This document shows positions 6,379 to 59,495 of a stretch of 64,000 nucleotides of DNA, one piece after another. This DNA comes from an uncultured Verrucomicrobiae bacterium. Its GTDB lineage: Bacteria; Verrucomicrobiota; Verrucomicrobiia; Chthoniobacterales; UBA10450. Each line of letters opens with the position of its first letter. Position 1 is the stretch's first letter. A model generated the notes under the pieces. That model saw only the letters and a program-made list of their open reading frames with translations, did no database searches and was not told where the DNA came from. The DNA lies in NCBI GenBank assembly GCA_963772365.1, contig CAVYXA010000003.1, forward strand, positions 128,001 to 192,000. Direction: 5' to 3'. A program made the position numbers and the translations under genes.

Positions 6379-6465
6379 ATCATGTTGAGCGAAGCGAAAC
6401 ATCTCTGACTATTTTGCCGCAGATTTCGAAATGATTGGAGATTCTTCGCTTCGCTCAGAATGACA
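6379..6465. repeat. inverted-repeat element (TGTCATTCTGAGCGAAGCGAAGAATCT type)
   Basis: tcatgttgagcgaagcgaaacatct ... agattcttcgcttcgctcagaatgaca; second copy at 27815-27937. Confidence 0.75.
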
Positions 6466-23720: not shown

Positions 23721-24536
23721 CGCGCCAATTGTTCGTTGGTGTTTTTCATAGACGCACACTTCGCGAATGCCGAGGATCGACATCTTCTCGGCGAGGCGGT
23801 CGTAGTTCTCTCCTAATTGCGCGTGCGAATGAGCATCGGAAGCAGTGGTGAATGGAATGCCCTTTTTCATGGCGAGCCGAATGATTTCGTCGCTCGGATA
23901 AAGCTCATCGACCGGCTTGCGCCAGCCGGCGGTCGAGAGTTCAATCGCGAGATTGCGAGAGCGGATGAGATCGAGCGTTTCATCGACAATCGCCCGGACA
24001 TCACCGCAGGGACGATGACCATGGATCTTGATGAGATCGAGATGAGATAGACAATCGACGAGACCGGTGGAGGCGATCTCGCGGATGCGTCGAAAATAAT
24101 CTTCGTAGACTTCGTTGATATCGCGTCCGACGAATTGCCCCGCGCCCTCGGGGATGGTGTCGAACATCTGCGTCGGATCATCGAGGTAATGAACCGAGTC
24201 CGAGAACAAAATCGAGTTTGTCCCAGTTTTTCTCGACCCAATTTCTGCCGGCGGCTGAAGTTTGCGGATCATTATCGAGCTCAATGCCGGCACGAATTTT
24301 CACATCCGTATTCGTGTCGCGGAGTTTATCGATTTCATCGAAATCGATGCCGGCGTGAAAACGATCGTGATCGGTGAAAGCGATATCGTTAAGCCATGCT
24401 TGCGCGCGCTGTCGATCCAGGGTTGCAACAAAGCGGCGGAATATGGTTGGACCCGATGACCCTGGGGATGAGTGTGATAATCGGAGAAGAGTTTCGTAAT
24501 CGCTTCGTTTGTAGCGGCGGTCAATGAGCGTCGCAA
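23715..24536 (-). CDS. PHP-domain histidinol-phosphatase (HisJ-like), frameshifted; start uncertain
   Basis: DYHTHP, SVHYL, SHLDLIK, IELSTAG, ASDAH. Confidence 0.75.
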
Positions 24537-24585
24537 ACTTTCACGCTGAAAACAGCGGCGGTCACAGACTTTCGGGGCCGCTACA
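24510..24585. repeat. GTAGCGGCGGTC REP doublet
   Basis: tgtagcggcggtcaatgagcgtcgc ... gcggcggtcacagactttcggggccgctaca. Confidence 0.8.
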
Positions 24586-27271: not shown

Positions 27272-27278
27272 TCCAATT

Positions 27279-27349
27279 CTGTAGCGGCGGTCTATGAGCG
27301 TCGCATTATTTTTTTCGGATCGAGCGACGGTCATAGACCGCCGCTACAG
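27279..27349. repeat. GTAGCGGCGGTC REP doublet
   Basis: ctgtagcggcggtctatgagcgtcgc ... gcgacggtcatagaccgccgctacag. Confidence 0.85.
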
Positions 27350-27796
27350 ATGCTGCTTCATTTTCTGAATCAGTCGCACATCTGAAATCCGCATCTCCTC
27401 ATCAACGGCCTTGCACATGTCGTAGATCGTAAGTAGCGCGACGGCACGCCAGTGAGCGCTTCCATTTCCACACCGGTCTGGGCGATGGTTTTGGCCGTGC
27501 ATTTCGCTTCCGCACCGTCTCGCGACCTCACGATGTCGATCTTGACTTCACTCAACGGCAATGTGTGGCAAAGCGGAATCAGATGCGCGGTTTGCTTCGC
27601 CGCCTGAATGCCGGCAATTCGGGCAGTCGCGAAGACATTACCTTTGGCGATTTGATCGGTCGAGATCAAGTCAGATCGTCTCGCGCTGAAGCTTGATCTT
27701 TCCGGCGGCGACTGCTCTTCGCGCGCTGATCGGCTTGGCCGAAACATCAACCATCTGCGCGCGACCATCGACCGCGATGTGAGTGAGGCGTTTCAT
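27344..27796 (-). CDS. moaC: cyclic pyranopterin monophosphate synthase MoaC (frameshifted)
   Basis: LTH...[47 protein letters not shown]. Confidence 0.88.
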
Positions 27797-27814
27797 TTCC
27801 ACTATCTTGCGTTC

Positions 27815-27937
27815 TCATTCCTGCATGACGGGAGAAGAATCTCCAGTCATTTTCTCCGACACGTCAAAACCAATAGTTTGAGATGTTTCGCTTCGCTCAA
27901 TTCGCCACAGGACGAATCCGCCGCGGCGGACATGACA
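27815..27937. repeat. second copy of the 6379-type inverted repeat, carrying 30-nt micro-element A at 27901-27930
   Basis: agatgtttcgcttcgctcaa[ttcgccacaggacgaatccgccgcggcgga]catgaca. Confidence 0.75.
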
Positions 27938-27966
27938 AGGGCGGAAATTCCGCTACCACATGTCGC

Positions 27967-29024
27967 TCAGCCGCCGATGGCGACCATTTTGCGACCGGGC
28001 TGGTAGTTATCGCGAAAGTCGTGCTGCTTGAGGCTTTCGATCGACTACATCGCGAAAAAACTGCCGCAGTTCTTCGTCGGTCGCCCCGGCGCGCAGTGGC
28101 TCCATGATATCGAACTCGAGATAGCTTCCGAGACATGGGCGTAGCTTTCCGTCGCAGGTCAATCGCAGCTTGTTGCAGCTTTCGCAGAAGTGCAGATTGG
28201 TCATGGCGCCGATGAAACCGATCCGCTGCGTCCGCCCGGGGATCTGATAATACGTGGCCGGTCCGTTGGTTCGGAACGACGGCTCGGGAATCAACTGGCC
28301 AAAGATGCGACTCGATTGCGCGTCTGGCATGCAGGATCGACAGGAAATTCTCGTCGCTTAAAACTTCGGTGGTGCTCACCGGCATCAATTCAATGAAACG
28401 CAGAATCAAATTGCGGCAGGCGGCGAATTCGACCAGCGGAATCAATTGATCTTCGTTACGGCTGCGCATGAGAACGCAGTTCAATTTGATCTGATCAAAT
28501 CCAGCGGCGATCGCCGCCTTGATTCCGTCGAGAACTTGTGAATGAAAATCGCGGCCCGTGATCTGCGGCGTAAAGATGTCGATCCAAAGTATCGAGCGAG
28601 ATGTTGACCGATCGCACGCCAGCATTGCGAAGCGCCATTGCCATGGTTGTAGCCGTGGGCGCTGAACACGGCTCACTTCGATCAGCCCAAGAGTTACCGG
28701 GGTCGCCCCCGGCTAAGCTCGCGCGAGCAACGTTCCGTTCGTCGAGATACCAATGTCGCGAAGGCCGGAAATCTGAGGGAGCTCGCGAACCAGATTGAGA
28801 ACGCCGCGCCGGGTGAGGGGCTCGCCCCCGGTGATCCGCACCTTGGAAACGCCCAGCTCAACGGCGATGCGAATGAGGCGTAACGTTTCTTCGTAGGTCA
28901 AAATGTCCTCTCGCGGAAGCCATTCCTGTAACTCCTGCGGCATGCAATAAGTGCAGCGCTCATTGCAGCGGTCGGTAATCGAAACCCGCAAATAAGAAAT
29001 GCGATGGCCGTAGCGATCCTGCAT
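27967..29024 (-). CDS. moaA: GTP 3',8-cyclase MoaA (frameshifted)
   Basis: YLRVSITDRCNERCTYCM, ITGGEP, RFIELMP, FCESCNKLRLT.DGKLRPCL, C-terminal MVAIGG. Confidence 0.92.
28648..28716. repeat. GTAGCCG REP doublet inside moaA
   Basis: tgtagccgtgggcgctgaacacggc ... ccggggtcgcccccggctaa. Confidence 0.65.
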
Positions 29025-29109
29025 CCGAGCGCAACGTTACGAACGATAAAGGGTTGAATCAAGGAGGCGGAATGGTTGATTCCAATAAGGAGGTTGTATG
29101 ATTTTCAAA

Positions 29110-29679: not shown

Positions 29680-31188
29680 ATGGCTTACCGCTCCTATCGC
29701 GATTTTCTTCAGGCGCTGGAAACAGCCGGCGAACTGACGCGCGTCTCGGTCCCAGTCGATACCAATTTGCTCATTGCCGAATGGGCCGATCGAGAGATGA
29801 AATCGCCCGGTGGCGGCAAAGCGTTGCTTTTCGAGCAACCGCTTGTCGATGGAAGGAAATCGCAGTTCCCGGGGGCGATTAATACCATGGGTTCGCGCCG
29901 GCGGATGGCGCTGGCCTTACAGGTCGCGGACGTCGAAGAGTGGCGCGGGAAATTCAGCTCATCCTCAAAGCCAAGCCGCCCACTGATCTGCGTGAAGGAT
30001 GGAGCTCTGCTCAAGCAAGGAATTCATTTGCTGCACGCGCGGCCGAAACAAGTGAAGGAAGCGGCCTGTCACGAAGTCGTGCACAAGATCGACCCGCCTT
30101 CGCAAGGCTGCGGCGCGGCAGGCAATGGCGATGGATTTTCATTGTCGGATCTGCCGATCTTGAAATGCTGGCCCAAAGATGGCGGGCGATTCATCACCCT
30201 CCCCTGCGTGCATACTCGCGATCCGGAGACCGGCGCGCGCAACGTCGGGGTTTATCGAATGCAGGTTTATGACGAGCGCACTACCGGCATGCACTGGCAG
30301 ATTCACAAGGTCGGCGCGCGGCATGGGAAACGTTATTATGAAAGGCGCGAACGGATGCCGGTGGCGGTGACCCTCGGGGGCGATCCAGTTTACACCTTTG
30401 CCGCCACCGCGCCGTTGCCAGACGGTCTGGACGAAATTTTGTTCGCCGGTTTTCTGCGGAAGAAATCGGTCGAGCTAGTCCGTTGCAAGACCATCGATGT
30501 CGATGTTCCGGCGGATGTCGATTTTGTCCTGGAAGGTTATGTGCAGCCTGGCGAGATGCGACCGGAGGGACCATTCGGCGATCATACTGGGTTTTATACC
30601 GCGGTCGAGGATTACCCAGTCTTTCATCTGACCGCGATCACGCATCGCAAGGATGCGATTTACCCGACCACGATCGTGGGCAAGCCGCCGATGGAAGACT
30701 TTTATCTCGGCGATACGACGGTGCGGCTTTTTCTGCCGGTGTTCAAAATGAACTTTCCAGAGATCGTCGATATGACGTTGCCGCCCGAAGGCGTGTTTCA
30801 TAATCTGGTGTTTGTCAGCATTCGAAAACAGTATCCGTATCAGGCGTTCAAAGTGATGCACGGCCTCTGGGGCATGGGCCAGATGATGTTCAGCAAATAC
30901 ATCGTGGTGGTGGATGAAGATTGCGACGTGCATAACACCAGCGAAGTGCTGTTTCGTTTGTGCGCCAACACCGATCCGGCCCGCGATTCAACCGTGATCA
31001 AAAACCCGAGCGACTCGCTCGATCACGCGCCAACGGAACAGAACATCGGTTCGCACATGGGATTTGATGCCACCCGAAAATTACCGGGCGAAGGCTACCG
31101 TCGCCCATGGCCGGAGTTGCTGAAGATGACGGACGAAGCGCAGAAGCTCGTGGATGAGCTGCAACGAAAGTCAGGCATCTCTACCTGA
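29680..31188 (+). CDS. ubiD: UbiD-family decarboxylase (probably menaquinone/futalosine pathway)
   Basis: WPKDGGRFIT, NVGVYRMQ, EGPFGDHTGFY, VVVDED, DSLDHA, FDAT.K; compensating indels near 29940-30003. Confidence 0.88.
   Translation: MAYRSYRDFLQALETAGELTRVSVPVDTNLLIAEWADREMKSPGGGKALLFEQPLVDGRKSQFPGAINTMGSRRRMALALQVADVEEWRGKFSSSSKPSRPLICVKDGALLKQGIHLLHARPKQVKEAACHEVVHKIDPPSQGCGAAGNGDGFSLSDLPILKCWPKDGGRFITLPCVHTRDPETGARNVGVYRMQVYDERTTGMHWQIHKVGARHGKRYYERRERMPVAVTLGGDPVYTFAATAPLPDGLDEILFAGFLRKKSVELVRCKTIDVDVPADVDFVLEGYVQPGEMRPEGPFGDHTGFYTAVEDYPVFHLTAITHRKDAIYPTTIVGKPPMEDFYLGDTTVRLFLPVFKMNFPEIVDMTLPPEGVFHNLVFVSIRKQYPYQAFKVMHGLWGMGQMMFSKYIVVVDEDCDVHNTSEVLFRLCANTDPARDSTVIKNPSDSLDHAPTEQNIGSHMGFDATRKLPGEGYRRPWPELLKMTDEAQKLVDELQRKSGIST
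30094..30123 (+). repeat. 30-nt micro-element B, in frame in ubiD
   Basis: gatcgac|ccgccttcgcaaggctgcggcgcggcaggc|aat encodes PPSQGCGAAG. Confidence 0.8.
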
Positions 31189-33540: not shown

Positions 33541-33549
33541 GTTCGTCGT

Positions 33550-33621
33550 TTGTAGCGGCGCTCTGCGAGCGTCGCAAACTTGTTCTGGAAAGCTGGCGAC
33601 GGTCACAGACCGCCGCTACAA
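33550..33621. repeat. GTAGCGGCG REP doublet
   Basis: ttgtagcggcgctctgcgagcgtcgc ... gcgacggtcacagaccgccgctacaa. Confidence 0.85.
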
Positions 33622-38633: not shown

Positions 38634-39134
38634 ATGGAGATTATGCCCAAACTGATCATTGGCGGAACGACGCATGAATTGACGGAACCGTTGATCACGA
38701 TAGGGCGCGCGCCGGACAACACGATCGTGATCGACGATCCGTCGGTCTCGGCGCATCACGCGGAACTGCGATTAGTGGGTGAGGATTATCGGCTGAAGGA
38801 TCTTGGATCGACACACGGCACCCGGATTAATGGTGTTCTCGTCACCGAAACGGTTCTGCGCTTTGACGATCGGGTCCGGTTCGGCGGCGTTGAAGCGCGG
38901 TACGAATCGGACACGCGCGGCTCGCAACCGCTCCCGGCCCCGGAAGAAATCCGGGCCCAACCGGCGGAATCGAGCACGAGCCCGATCGATTTCGCAAACG
39001 CATCACCGTTTCGGAAACACAAGAAAGAGAAAGACCCGATTCGCACCGCCATTCTGGGCGCGGTTCTCGTCGCGTTTCTCGCTTTCCTCGGCAGCATGAT
39101 CGCGGTGCTGCTGATGGCGCCGCCAAGTCCGTGA
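38634..39134 (+). CDS. FHA-domain membrane protein
   Basis: IGRAPDN...SVSAHHA...DLGSTHGTRING; C-terminal TM helix. Confidence 0.88.
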   Translation: MEIMPKLIIGGTTHELTEPLITIGRAPDNTIVIDDPSVSAHHAELRLVGEDYRLKDLGSTHGTRINGVLVTETVLRFDDRVRFGGVEARYESDTRGSQPLPAPEEIRAQPAESSTSPIDFANASPFRKHKKEKDPIRTAILGAVLVAFLAFLGSMIAVLLMAPPSP

Positions 39135-39136
39135 TC

Positions 39137-39204
39137 TGTAGCGGCGGTCTGTAATCGTGGCCATCTCCGTGGCAAATTTGCGCCGGTCATAGACCGCCGC
39201 TACA
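39137..39204. repeat. GTAGCGGCGGTC REP doublet
   Basis: tgtagcggcggtctgtaatcgtgg ... cgccggtcatagaccgccgctaca. Confidence 0.8.
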
Positions 39205-39261
39205 AAGTCACCGCCGCAAGAGTTATGTGAAACTCTGCGAAATCTGCGGAATGATAAGAAA

Positions 39262-52504: not shown

Positions 52505-53449
52505 ATGAGACGGAGAATCGCGGTGGTTGGTGCGGGCGTCTCGGGCCTCAGTTGCGCCGTTTCTTTTGCGGAGCGGGGAATTCGCACCACGATTTTTGCC
52601 GAGGAAAGTGGACAGCGAACAACCTCAGCTGTTGCCGCGGCGATCTGGTTTCCGTACGATGCCGAGCCCGCAGCGAAAGTAATTCCATGGGCGCTCGAAA
52701 CCTACAGAACGCTTGTCGATCTTGCGCGAGACGCGAGTAGCGGTGTTTCGATGATCGAGCTGCGCCAATTTTCGCGAAGTGCTCACATCGAGATTCCGGA
52801 TTGGGCGAGCAAGCTCGGCGCGCGCCGCGTTTCGCTCCTCCCGCAGTTTCCGGACGGACTCGCCATTAATGTTCCGCTGATGGATACCACAATTTATCTC
52901 GACTATCTCGCGCGCCGGTTTTCCGCAGCCGGAGGCGCAATTCATTCCGGCGTGCGTTTGGAGCAGTTGGGGGATATCGATCTTGCATTCGATCTAATCA
53001 TTAATTGTGCGGGAGTGGGCGCGCGTAAGTTGGTCGGCGATGTCGATGTTGAGCCGCACCGCGGCCAGGTGGTGATCGTGCCCAAGATCGACAAGTTATC
53101 GTGCGCGATTGCCTGTGATGAGGCGCCGCTCTTTTACGCCATTCCGCGCAAGAAGGATTGTGTGCTGGGCGGAACAAATGATCTGAGTGATGATCTGGAC
53201 GTTGATCCTCAAGCCACGGCTCATATTCTTGCCGAGATGAGCCGCGCGCTGAATCTTGGCGAACCGAAAATTCTTGCGGAGCGAGTTGGCCTTCGCCCAT
53301 TTCGGCGCACGGGCGTTCGTTTGGAATCGGATCGTTTGCAGGACGATCGCGCCGTGATTCACAATTATGGGCATGGTGGGTCTGGCTTCACTCTTTCCTG
53401 GGGATGCGCGAAAAAAGTTCTCGAACTCGCGAAAGCGATTCTGGGTTGA
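52505..53449 (+). CDS. D-amino acid oxidase family FAD oxidoreductase
   Basis: VVGAGVSG, TTSAVAAAIW, INCAGVGA, RGQV, GLRP, HNYGHGGSGFTLSWGCA. Confidence 0.85.
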   Translation: MRRRIAVVGAGVSGLSCAVSFAERGIRTTIFAEESGQRTTSAVAAAIWFPYDAEPAAKVIPWALETYRTLVDLARDASSGVSMIELRQFSRSAHIEIPDWASKLGARRVSLLPQFPDGLAINVPLMDTTIYLDYLARRFSAAGGAIHSGVRLEQLGDIDLAFDLIINCAGVGARKLVGDVDVEPHRGQVVIVPKIDKLSCAIACDEAPLFYAIPRKKDCVLGGTNDLSDDLDVDPQATAHILAEMSRALNLGEPKILAERVGLRPFRRTGVRLESDRLQDDRAVIHNYGHGGSGFTLSWGCAKKVLELAKAILG

Positions 53450-53482
53450 GCATTGAAGGTTGGGCGTTGAGCGTTGAACGTT
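53447..53482. repeat. heptamer tandem repeat (TGAGCGT)-like x5
   Basis: tgagcat tgaaggt tgggcgt tgagcgt tgaacgt. Confidence 0.65.
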
Positions 53483-53487
53483 TGCCG

Positions 53488-54576
53488 ATGGAAACGGAAA
53501 CGCCGGCCGGGCCTGATCCGGCGCGCCCGGCGGTCGCGCCCTACCAACTCGGTTATCGAATGCCGGCGGAATGGGAACCGCACGCGGCGACCTGGCTTTC
53601 CTGGCCGCGCCGGGAAGGGATCAGTTTTCCCGAATCGTTTGATCGCGTCCTGCCCACGTTGCGCGCGATGGTGGAAGCGCTGGTCGAGAGCGAACCCGTC
53701 TGCATTAATGTTTGCAACGGCGCGCACGAAGCGGAAGCGCGGAACGTCTTGAAAGATGTCGATCTTGGGCGTGTCACTTTTTATCGGATACCAACCAACG
53801 AGCCGTGGTGCCGCGATCACGGTCCGATTTTTTTGACGCGCGATGCGAAGCCGAAGTTCGCCACCGGACGGATTCGCCGCGGCGAACTGGCGATTGTCGA
53901 TTGGGATTACAACGCCTGGGGGAATAAATATCCGCCATTCGATTTGGATGAGGTCGTGCCCACGCGCGTAGCCGAAATTTTGAAGGTGCCAGTATTTTAT
54001 CCGCAGATGATTCTGGAAGGCGGTTCGATCGACGTGAACGGTGCCGGCGCGCTGCTGACGAGCGAATCGTGTCTGCTAAATAAAAATCGAAACCCGAGAC
54101 TCTCGCGAGAAGAAATCGAACAACGGCTGCGGGAGTTTCTCGGCGTTCGCGATATTCTGTGGCTGGGCGACGGAATTGCCGGCGACGACACAGATGGCCA
54201 CATCGACGACCTGGCTCGCTTTGTTTCCGAAACGAGAGTCGTGACCGTGGTCGAAGAAAATCGAGATGACGAAAACTTCGAGCCGCTTCAGGAAAACCTT
54301 AGCCGCCTGAGCGGATTCGGACTCGAGATCGTGACATTGCCGATGCCGAAAAAGATTGTGCGGGAAGGTCTGCGGCTGCCAGCCAGCTACGCAAACTTCT
54401 ACATTAGCAATGGATGCGTACTGGTACCGACTTTCGCGGATCCTGCCGATGAATCGGCGTTGTCGATCCTGCGCGATCTCTTTCCAGATCGCCGCATCAT
54501 TGGGATCGATTGCCGCGAACTGATCTGGGGCCTGGGCACATTTCACTGTCTCACCCAGCAACAACCCGCCGTTTAG
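53488..54576 (+). CDS. agmatine deiminase family protein
   Basis: MPAEWEPH, WCRDHGP, LEGGSI, DDTDGHIDD, ASYANF, GTFHCLTQQQP. Confidence 0.9.
   Translation: METETPAGPDPARPAVAPYQLGYRMPAEWEPHAATWLSWPRREGISFPESFDRVLPTLRAMVEALVESEPVCINVCNGAHEAEARNVLKDVDLGRVTFYRIPTNEPWCRDHGPIFLTRDAKPKFATGRIRRGELAIVDWDYNAWGNKYPPFDLDEVVPTRVAEILKVPVFYPQMILEGGSIDVNGAGALLTSESCLLNKNRNPRLSREEIEQRLREFLGVRDILWLGDGIAGDDTDGHIDDLARFVSETRVVTVVEENRDDENFEPLQENLSRLSGFGLEIVTLPMPKKIVREGLRLPASYANFYISNGCVLVPTFADPADESALSILRDLFPDRRIIGIDCRELIWGLGTFHCLTQQQPAV
53857..53886 (+). repeat. 30-nt micro-element A, in frame in agmatine deiminase
   Basis: ttcgccaccggacggattcgccgcggcgaa encodes FATGRIRRGE; 26/30 identical to 27901-27930. Confidence 0.8.
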
Positions 54577-58430: not shown

Positions 58431-59495
58431 ATGCCAACAGGCAACGAGGCCTTAATCGAAATTATTCGCCAAACGATTCGTTCACACGGGCCGCAATCGT
58501 TCGACTGGTTCATGCAACAGGCCCTTTATCATCCCGAGCATGGATATTATGCCAGCGGACGCGCCCGTATCGGACGAAAGGGCGACTACTTCACAAACGT
58601 CAGCGTCGGTCCGTTATTCGGCAAATTGTTAGCCGCGCAATTCAAGGAAATCTGGGAACAGCTCGGGAGGATCGACCCGCCTTCCCAAAGCTCCGGCGCG
58701 GCTGGCAATTTCCTGATCGTCGAGCAAGGCGCTCATGATGGCCAGTTCGCCTGCGACGTTCTTGGGGCGATCCAGGAACACACACCCAAATTTTTTGCCG
58801 CGTTGCGTTATCGAATCATCGAGCCGTTTGCGGTGTGGAAGGATCGACAACGGCAAAACCTCGGCCCGTTTCGTGACAAGGTGGAATGGCGCGATGCTCT
58901 CGAGCCTTTTACTGGCATCCATTTCTCGAACGAACTCCTCGACGCCATGCCGGTCCGATTATTTGAAAATGGAATGGAGAAATTTATCGATATTCGGAAC
59001 GGTGAGTTTGTGTTGTTGACTCGCGAATCGAAAAGTCGGCGCCCGTTTAATCAGGCAGCGCTCGATTGGATCGACAATGTAGCGGCGAAGTTGCAGCGCG
59101 GTTACATCCTCACAATCGATTACGGACGCGAGTGTTCCGAGCCGCCCCGCGATGTCCAGGTTCGGGCGCAACATCGACATCTGGATTCGCCATTGGAACA
59201 AATCGGCGAGGCAGATATTACCGCGCCGGTGGATTGGACTGGCATTATCAGTCGGGCCAGCCAGGCGGGTCTGGATTTGGCCGGATTCACGGACCAACAT
59301 CATTTCCTTACCGGGATCCTTTCGACCTGGCCCGATCTCCTCGCCCGAGTGAATCCAAAGATGAGCCGTGAGCTGAAAACGTTGCTTCATCCGGAGATGC
59401 TGGGGCGCAGTTTCCATGTGCTGGCATTATCAAAGAATGTGAATCGTGGCCTGCCATTAGCTGGTTTTCAGTTGGCCGGAACGCTTTCCCGGTAA
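58431..59495 (+). CDS. MidA/NDUFAF7-like SAM-dependent methyltransferase
   Basis: FMQQALYHP..GYY, GDYFT, IVEQGAHDG, SNELLDAMP, IDYG, DITAPVD. Confidence 0.85.
   Translation: MPTGNEALIEIIRQTIRSHGPQSFDWFMQQALYHPEHGYYASGRARIGRKGDYFTNVSVGPLFGKLLAAQFKEIWEQLGRIDPPSQSSGAAGNFLIVEQGAHDGQFACDVLGAIQEHTPKFFAALRYRIIEPFAVWKDRQRQNLGPFRDKVEWRDALEPFTGIHFSNELLDAMPVRLFENGMEKFIDIRNGEFVLLTRESKSRRPFNQAALDWIDNVAAKLQRGYILTIDYGRECSEPPRDVQVRAQHRHLDSPLEQIGEADITAPVDWTGIISRASQAGLDLAGFTDQHHFLTGILSTWPDLLARVNPKMSRELKTLLHPEMLGRSFHVLALSKNVNRGLPLAGFQLAGTLSR
58677..58706 (+). repeat. 30-nt micro-element B, in frame in the methyltransferase
   Basis: gatcgac|ccgccttcccaaagctccggcgcggctggc|aat encodes PPSQSSGAAG. Confidence 0.8.

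Follow-up and report, generated by a model that had tools for sequence, protein, structure and literature searches.

Results

A 30-nucleotide insertion in the moaA-moaC gap

The stretch of DNA analysed here, called the window throughout, comprises 64,000 nucleotides of one contig of an uncultured Verrucomicrobiae bacterium of the order Chthoniobacterales. The source genome (G000) measures 3.35 Mb in 6 contigs and is 90% complete. The features on which the analysis turns are as follows, with positions counted from the first letter of the window.

1814-2332, forward: RAYT gene with its own GTAG REPs (1787-1819 and 2263-2295) and no flanking element A
6381-6404, reverse: whole paralogous arm of the host repeat, an empty target
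6439-6465, forward: sister arm of the pair at 6381
27814-27843, forward: degraded second arm of the pair of host repeats between moaA and moaC (limits approximate, from alignment with the empty site of genome G155)
27881-27900, forward: host repeat arm left of the insertion (Ssn/NTS-type, CGTC-like repeat)
27901-27930, forward: element A, with hairpin 1 (27901-27916, with a bulged A and a loop of 3 nt) directly followed by hairpin 2 (27917-27930)
27931-27937, forward: host repeat arm right of the insertion
30093-30122, forward: element B, 30 nt, one bulged hairpin and a 4-nt tail, in a ubiD-family gene, with a purine|C junction
53404-54576, forward: PAD_porph/agmatine-deiminase-family gene, an open frame that scores under the NCBIfam aguA cut-off
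53857-53886, forward: copy of element A within the deiminase gene
58676-58705, forward: second copy of element B

Element A is gene-less DNA of 30 nt that holds two small hairpins (27901-27930, forward strand). A preliminary description of the window had noted that it splits one repeat arm precisely, and this holds: the arm runs from 27881-27900 into 27931-27937 when exactly the 30 nt between are removed, and no target duplication is left. The same description paired this site with the arm at 6381-6404 (reverse strand) as filled and empty states; the arm there is indeed the same and whole, but it belongs to a paralogous repeat copy and is not an allele of the site at 27881. In relatives, the moaA-moaC gap holds an empty repeat (G155), a different repeat (G001) or none (G009). 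On the reverse strand at 27967-29100, moaA is spread over several reading frames, probably through assembly indels, and its stop lies just right of the filled repeat.

Throughout G000, 142 matches to the host arm were found, of which 117 are uninterrupted, 13 are filled and 12 are other or weak. Eleven of the 13 fills are exactly 30 nt long, one of them with its junction shifted by 1 base, one further fill has 31 nt and one has a damaged right flank; variable-length junk at this position, the observation that would undo a precise insertion, was not seen. Arms with C after the junction are filled in 13 cases and empty in 58, and arms with another base are filled in 0 of 59, counts in which the copies are not independent. 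The composite of host repeat and element A is present in 3 of 151 genomes, including two of another genus. Across data sets the host-repeat site is filled 20 times, 18 times by one subtype of element A and twice by the other, which suggests that repeat and element spread as one unit and that the element also inserted independently at least once; such joint spread probably accounts for some of the 13 copies.

Copies, precision and distribution

A position-weight matrix applied to G000 returned 31 copies of element A above 25 bits and 33 above 20 bits, against 0 and 1, respectively, in a fifth-order Markov genome of equal size. When exactly 30 nt were removed from 39 coding sites of other genomes, 25 then aligned to G000 without a gap; 4 are also filled in G000 and the remaining 10 show gaps of other kinds. 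Direct repeats across the junction were counted in 156 site clusters and measure 2 nt in 7, 3 nt in 1, 4 nt in 4, 5-6 nt in 0 and 7 nt in 3. These are chance-like levels, and the 7-nt length matches enriched heptamer tracts. A target duplication of 1 nt was excluded because in 41 of the 156 sites a G precedes an element that ends in A, and because empty look-alikes keep the target base; position 30 of the element tracks its position 17 and not the target base. The empty orthologues and junction-repeat counts thus bear out the proposal of a precisely inserting 30-nt mobile unit without target duplication, and it is almost certain that element A is mobile and precise.

Chance or an assembly artefact has next to no probability as the source of this pattern. 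Indel-type breaks do occur nearby in the assembly, where moaA is split over frames, but at least hundreds of copies exist across independent assemblies, a reversed-pattern control gave 0 matches in 151 genomes and clean empty orthologues exist, so this reading is refuted.

The element A pattern is present in 99 of the 151 family genomes, a tally that includes unpublished genomes, with 0 control matches, and in 0 of 149 Verrucomicrobiota genomes outside the family. Collections were scanned by DNA pattern and the taxonomic spread is a sample; among the matches listed, exact sporadic copies stand in records titled Nitrospirae, Elusimicrobia, Bacteroidetes, Acidobacteria and Dormiibacterota. Some of the copies outside the Verrucomicrobiota may be mis-binned. 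In the Bacteroidetes record (G316, 35% GC), three copies (L172, L177 and L181) lie at the 3' end of a gene that is presumably transposase-like, with which element A apparently hitch-hikes. A phage carrier was rejected, as a single contig of the viral collection matches. The titles and abstract openings searched, in a collection with few subscription journals, hold no description of the element A family.

Insertions within protein-coding genes

The copy at 53857-53886 matches element A at 26 of 30 positions and adds FATGRIRRGE in frame, both as first described. Thirty deiminase loci were compared, of which 5 could not be parsed. Among the 24 other readable loci the spacing is exactly 10 residues shorter in 19 (one of them from an unpublished genome, G014), departs by +1 in 2 and by +2 in 1, and is occupied by longer inserts of their own in 2. 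A clean gap of 10 amino acids in orthologues, without which an insertion here would have been hard to maintain, is therefore present in 19 of 24. Seven deiminase orthologues (L002, L005, L006, L008, L021, L022 and L028) have other short in-frame inserts, two of which occupy the same loop as element A.

Outside the host repeat, 15 of the 20 copies above 20 bits in G000 lie inside open frames of at least 200 codons. The frames concerned include aspS, gcvP, hpt, ligA, two Ser/Thr kinases, a molybdoenzyme, a methyltransferase, an ABC transporter and glycosyltransferases, and one in-frame copy sits at the very start of its open frame. Each in-gene insertion adds 10 amino acids, and a stop triplet on either strand is found in 5 of 142 copies; in-gene copies survive because 30 nt keeps the frame and stop triplets are rare in the element.

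Conserved genes contain 39 of 135 copies of 30 nt and 17 of 45 of 33 nt, but 0 of 21 of 31-32 nt (p ~0.001, a value that overstates the filter: one host repeat accounts for about half of the 32-nt copies, and length was the criterion by which the 32- and 33-nt sites were chosen). The length of 30 nt is intrinsic, because intergenic copies also have it, and genes also filter element length. From two unrelated elements of 30 nt, the preliminary description had surmised either a shared mechanism or selection for the reading frame, and both find support, the former in the purine|C junction that element B has in common with element A and the latter in the absence of 31-32-nt copies from conserved genes.

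Element A is constrained to fold as two abutting hairpins

Hairpin 1 is 16 nt long, with a bulged A at position 12 and a free 3-nt loop, and is directly abutted by hairpin 2 of 14 nt. Forty sequences were picked by hand from loci, 39 of them distinct. In these 39, the two-hairpin model leaves 99.1% of cells paired, which 0 of 500 shuffles reach; the search pattern had fixed the invariant positions, which are most of the paired ones, and the informative pairs are 2:15, 17:30 and 18:29 only. All three covary, with both sides changing. The terminal inverted ends reported earlier are confined to the deiminase copy and did not stand as a feature of the family: positions 2 and 29 are unpaired in 24 of 39 sequences, and a terminal-inverted-repeat model was discarded, as it pairs 82.4% of cells, below all shuffles. 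Element A is thereby shown to be under constraint to fold as two abutting hairpins, which as a single strand would form a nicked dumbbell.

In the energy model the circular consensus folds as a dumbbell, in favour of such a form; against it, the minimum-energy fold of the linear consensus is a long stem (-9.8 versus -7.0 kcal/mol for the dumbbell). A circularly permuted form with swapped hairpin order was found in 0 of 151 genomes. The two main subtypes of element A differ as if the two halves of the central duplex of the dumbbell had changed places, with positions 2/15 and 18/29 strongly coupled.

Loop 1 takes 33 different sequences among the 156 clusters. Freely varying loops would suit a route by way of RNA and reverse transcription, which has been suggested for the hairpin elements of fungal mitochondria, and insertion without flanking duplication is an argument also made for the elements of Allomyces (PMC2800124). 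For element A this route is nevertheless highly improbable, given that it lies in both orientations relative to the host gene (18 same and 16 opposite in 34 long-frame cases), that Rfam gives no match around the site (27700-28100 of the window) and that no RVT_1 match was found in the 90%-complete G000.

Related short elements and neighbouring repeats

Sister elements of 32/33 nt, in which both hairpins are bulged, form a family present in 68 of 151 genomes. Counted from the junction, its 37 targets have C at -4 in 27, G at -1 in 30, C at +1 in 25 and G at +4 in 27. In three genomes (G047, G069 and G087; L230-L263) one intergenic repeat position is filled by many 32-/33-nt sisters with different loops, which suggests repeated independent insertion. 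Element B, found in 65 of 151 family genomes, shows 1:26 covariation in its hairpin and prefers an A|C junction, with A at -1 in 20 of 25 and C at +1 in 20 of 25. Elements of these families nest in one another, and at C3:326,770-326,835 of G000 a 33-nt sister lies in the first loop of an element A copy, itself inside an open frame of 467 codons.

Other repeats and genes of the neighbourhood and genome were recorded. Scattered pairs of a second GTAG REP family lie in the window at 24505-24568, 27275-27350, 33546-33621 and 39132-39206. Elsewhere in G000, a RAYT domain stands in frame (C1:531,070-531,348) inside a 904-codon gene that reads like recG, tandem small GIY-YIG genes lie between tRNA fragments in which other short hairpins take the place of the anticodon arm (C1:377,000-379,100 and C6:1-500), and an integron integrase gene lies at C1:1,249,825-1,250,424.

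An oriented target coupled to the end of the element

De-replication of 280 sites left 156, in which a purine occupies -1 in 150, C occupies +1 in 128 and -4 in 92, T occupies +3 in 78 and G occupies +4 in 72, with sites from related genomes not being independent. Element A is shown to prefer the oriented target C-N-N-purine|C-N-T-G. The junction is purine|pyrimidine in 93 of 110 element A sites, and the motif CNNR|YNNG fits 23 of 110 of these and 14 of 37 sister sites, against a background of 1.8%. The same motif describes both the internal joint of element A and its end-to-start junction, and the central duplex of the dumbbell (CGRR|TYCG over CGRA|YYCG) resembles the target.

At -1, the target base is coupled to positions 17 and 30 of the element; set against the last base of the element, the combinations are A/A 64, G/A 41, G/G 41 and A/G 4 (p=1e-9), a pattern repeated in metagenome loci alone. 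Position 18 does not covary with -2. Variants with a G17:C30 pair retain G at -1 at three separate sites, which looks like a preference for G, with A tolerated via one-base homology, and not like strict guide pairing.

Flank logos contain target bases and no fixed tag. Among the 156 targets, heptamer tracts are enriched (10 versus 1.4%) and REP-like motifs weakly so (24 versus 10%), and Ssn-type repeats are not (4 versus 1.9%). Placement of the target inside a hairpin was tried as a further factor and found weak (mean z of -0.6, 16 of 104 below -2). GATC and TCGA show no overall enrichment near the sites, an abundant genomic motif being merely in register with the target. The most frequent 8-mers of G000 are TGTCGATC and its complement (2,371 counts on both strands), in the manner of a highly iterated motif.

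Bacterial topoisomerase I is described as selecting a cytosine 4 nt upstream of its cut (PMC3467081). The host type IA topoisomerase (TopA) is a universal single-strand phosphotyrosine enzyme, and if it spliced in the dumbbell no dedicated transposase would be involved. Its preference would match the C at -4 in 92 of 156 element A targets and 27 of 37 sister targets and the C fixed at -4 of the right end of element A (in alignment) and of element B (where it is part of the search pattern). G000 has one topA gene, and a host enzyme would account for the lack of a partner gene and for the sporadic copies of the Nitrospirae, Elusimicrobia and Bacteroidetes records. However, the enzyme is universal, yet element A is confined to the family among the Verrucomicrobiota genomes searched (0 of 149 outside it), and C stands at -4 in just 59% of targets. 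To our knowledge, the strongest target features, the -1 purine and the +1 C, are not among the preferences of TopA, and we know of no established productive two-ended insertion by this enzyme. Splicing by TopA is therefore considered unlikely.

The junction also bears on tyrosine recombinases, for which element A could be a minimal attC-like substrate used as a folded single strand. An integron integrase is present in G000 (TIGR02249, above cut-off), element A keeps one extrahelical base conserved and its strand order is fixed, and the bottom strand of the host-repeat site fits the integron core, G|TTRRRY. However, AA|C, which gives the GTT triplet on the other strand, occurs in only 15 of 132 junctions, and attC sites are far longer than element A and have paired core boxes that it lacks, making this the most improbable of the routes considered.

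The host repeat and Ssn-type nucleases

The host repeat resembles repeats that flank small GIY-YIG (Ssn-like) genes in G000 (C3:612865) and in relatives, as judged with the NTS motif of PMC11893778. Nicks by such a single-strand nuclease could give breaks at which ligation, repair synthesis or gene conversion copies hairpins. In 20 loci chosen from about 110 hairpin-1-only matches, hairpin 1 by itself makes up the tip of an Ssn-type repeat, 4 or 5 of the 5 copies in the Elusimicrobia record lie inside such repeats, and GIY-YIG matches occur in 151 of 151 genomes, a count that includes UvrC. On the other side, a hydrolytic nuclease gives no strand transfer, de-replicated targets are not enriched in Ssn-type repeats, and an A-type hairpin was marked in 0 flanks of the 13 GIY-YIG loci that were parsed (of 30). 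Furthermore, SsnA is described as cutting a few nucleotides upstream of its repeat (PMC11893778) and not at an internal position such as that of element A. Movement of element A by Ssn is accordingly judged decidedly unlikely.

The repeats with hairpin 1 at their tip (L451-L470) come from G163, G119, G133, G042, G145, G157, G083, G111 and G135; at L470 the repeat directly precedes an Ssn-like GIY-YIG gene, which itself has an insertion.

HUH transposases and element A

Profile searches of G000 matched 9 Y1, 9 GIY-YIG, 12 four-helix-bundle and 8 tyrosine-recombinase proteins (one of the last being the integron integrase) and one TopA. Y1 genes are present in 139 of the 151 family genomes, and insertion in the IS200/IS605 family leaves no target duplication, both in keeping with an HUH enzyme. 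The enzymes of this family are described as inserting in an oriented manner at a site chosen by base pairing near the hairpins (PMC8266576).

The replichores of G000 carry 16 and 17 copies of element A, showing no bias in a genome of weak GC skew and 6 contigs. A true lack of bias would count against an HUH enzyme, as IS200/IS605 elements favour the lagging-strand template. The expectation that element A would flank a RAYT locus was disappointed: it flanks 0 of the 9 Y1 genes of G000, the nearest copy lying 1.4 kb from a gene that has its own REPs, and its junction is purine|pyrimidine and not C|T. Characterised RAYTs are reported to cut mainly at C|T, one of them also at C|A (PMC8266576). Nor does element A flank any GIY-YIG gene in G000. 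Y1 genes show no enrichment near element A in other genomes, with 2 among L031-L171 (252 kb), 0.7-1.0 kb away, and 0 among L300-L470 (428 kb). An autonomous tnpA element with the same, split ends was sought through hairpin 1 alone in 151 genomes, and none of the 50 loci inspected has a Y1 gene; the matches comprise degenerate copies, an Ssn-type repeat, variants with G17:C30 and what are likely chance matches. HUH chemistry in general may nonetheless apply to element A.

Discussion

The data presented identify element A as a short, gene-less unit with exact junctions, a conserved fold and an oriented target. The explanation that accounts best for them, though it is put forward tentatively and carries somewhat less than even confidence, is a non-autonomous bacterial double-hairpin element moved in trans by an unlinked transposase of the IS200/IS605 HUH (Y1) type. 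Insertion of the folded dumbbell into one strand is the firmer part of the proposal and is rather probable, judging from the geometry, the fixed order of the hairpins, the orientation and the likeness of joint and target. Single-stranded element A would fold as a dumbbell, bringing its 5' and 3' ends together within a single helix. One strand would then be cut at purine|pyrimidine steps with C at -4 by a strand-transfer enzyme supplied in trans, which would splice the 30-mer into one target strand to give a four-way junction; replication would fix the insertion. An IS200/IS605-type HUH (Y1) transposase unlinked to the element is a first guess at this enzyme.

A broader and more doubtful reading takes element A, its 32/33-nt sister and element B together as 30-base DNA parasites without an enzyme of their own. 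Element A would excise as a closed single-strand dumbbell with a target-mimicking duplex and be spliced into one strand of CNNR|CNNG sites, either by an orphan HUH enzyme or by a general phosphotyrosine enzyme of the host, for example topoisomerase IA. If true, the same route might explain the orphan double-hairpin elements of mitochondria and giant viruses, and would amount to a minimal chemistry for inserting DNA without a scar and under the direction of sequence. Should a host enzyme be responsible, element A would be among the smallest site-directed mobile DNAs known to us.

How gene-less palindromic micro-elements spread, among them CGTC REPs, Rickettsia palindromic elements (RPEs) and mitochondrial double-hairpin elements (DHEs), is a long-standing question. 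The element A family offers filled and empty sites by the hundred, junctions known to the base, a measured target consensus and a structure, so that candidate enzymes are testable with four oligonucleotides. Furthermore, element A constitutes a steady supply of 10-residue loop insertions in essential proteins (aspS, ligA, gcvP and hpt) of abundant soil bacteria.

Comparison with known systems

Several established classes were considered for element A and set aside. A MITE moved by a DDE transposase would have terminal inverted repeats and a target-site duplication, and element A has neither. It is not a member of the REP/RAYT system (REPtron), as it has no GTAG-type tetranucleotide at the hairpin foot, no flanking RAYT and no C|T cleavage site. 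It is not an integron cassette or attC site, the conserved GTT crossover triplet being absent (AA|C in 15 of 132 junctions), and as a whole it is not of the Ssn/NTS kind, with no GTCAT-type tag before the hairpin and no ssn gene flanked.

Likenesses to these and other systems are nonetheless evident. With non-autonomous IS200/IS605 derivatives and RAYT/REP systems, as described in PMC8266576, element A has in common a conserved bulge in its hairpin ends, an orientation on insertion at a short target and an apparent coupling of bases between element and cut site. It inserts 3' of that target and without duplication. It differs from them in lacking a guide tetranucleotide outside the hairpins, in a junction that is purine|pyrimidine and not C|T, in an apparent absence of replichore bias and in that no cognate tnpA was found. 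With regard to the Ssn/NTS system of PMC11893778, the host repeat is NTS-like and hairpin 1 equals the tip of one such repeat beside an Ssn-like gene, but element A is without the NTS tag and its insertion point lies within the repeat and not at the upstream Ssn cut described there. Yeast mitochondria contain GC clusters, GC42 among them, that are also very small palindromic mobile DNAs, change mainly in their loops and merge hairpin units in modular fashion (PMC4478555). For GC42 a duplication of AG at the target is postulated there, whereas element A has none.

Intragenic REPs of the GTAG and CGTC families and RPEs resemble element A as short palindromes in frame in housekeeping genes (PMC3733652). 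The in-frame REPs described there lie in tRNA synthetases and DNA ligase, and also occur in the verrucomicrobium Opitutus terrae. Unlike REPs and RPEs, element A has no GTAG or CGTC tag, consists of two hairpins without spacer or tail and does not flank a RAYT gene; it inserts into REPs and CGTC-type repeats as targets.

The DHEs of fungal mitochondria (Allomyces, chytrids and Schizosaccharomyces) are, like element A, GC-rich and gene-less, with two adjacent hairpins and loop variation, and are presumed mobile (PMC10085805, PMC2800124). They too lack a flanking duplication and an assigned mobilising enzyme. Element A shares with them two adjacent GC-rich hairpins with covariation, and presence or absence at orthologous sites without target duplication. 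It differs in residing in bacterial chromosomes, in its length of 30 nt, in a defined oriented target coupled to its last base and in standing often in frame in protein genes, whereas the DHEs of fission yeast are described from intergenic DNA and rRNA genes (PMC10085805, PMC2800124). The kinship appears to be a likeness of form and not membership, the two having been compared by description and not by sequence. The element A family is a real, bacterial one, of a known kind that is without mechanistic explanation, and its closest known counterparts are the double-hairpin elements of mitochondria and the in-frame REPs and RPEs.
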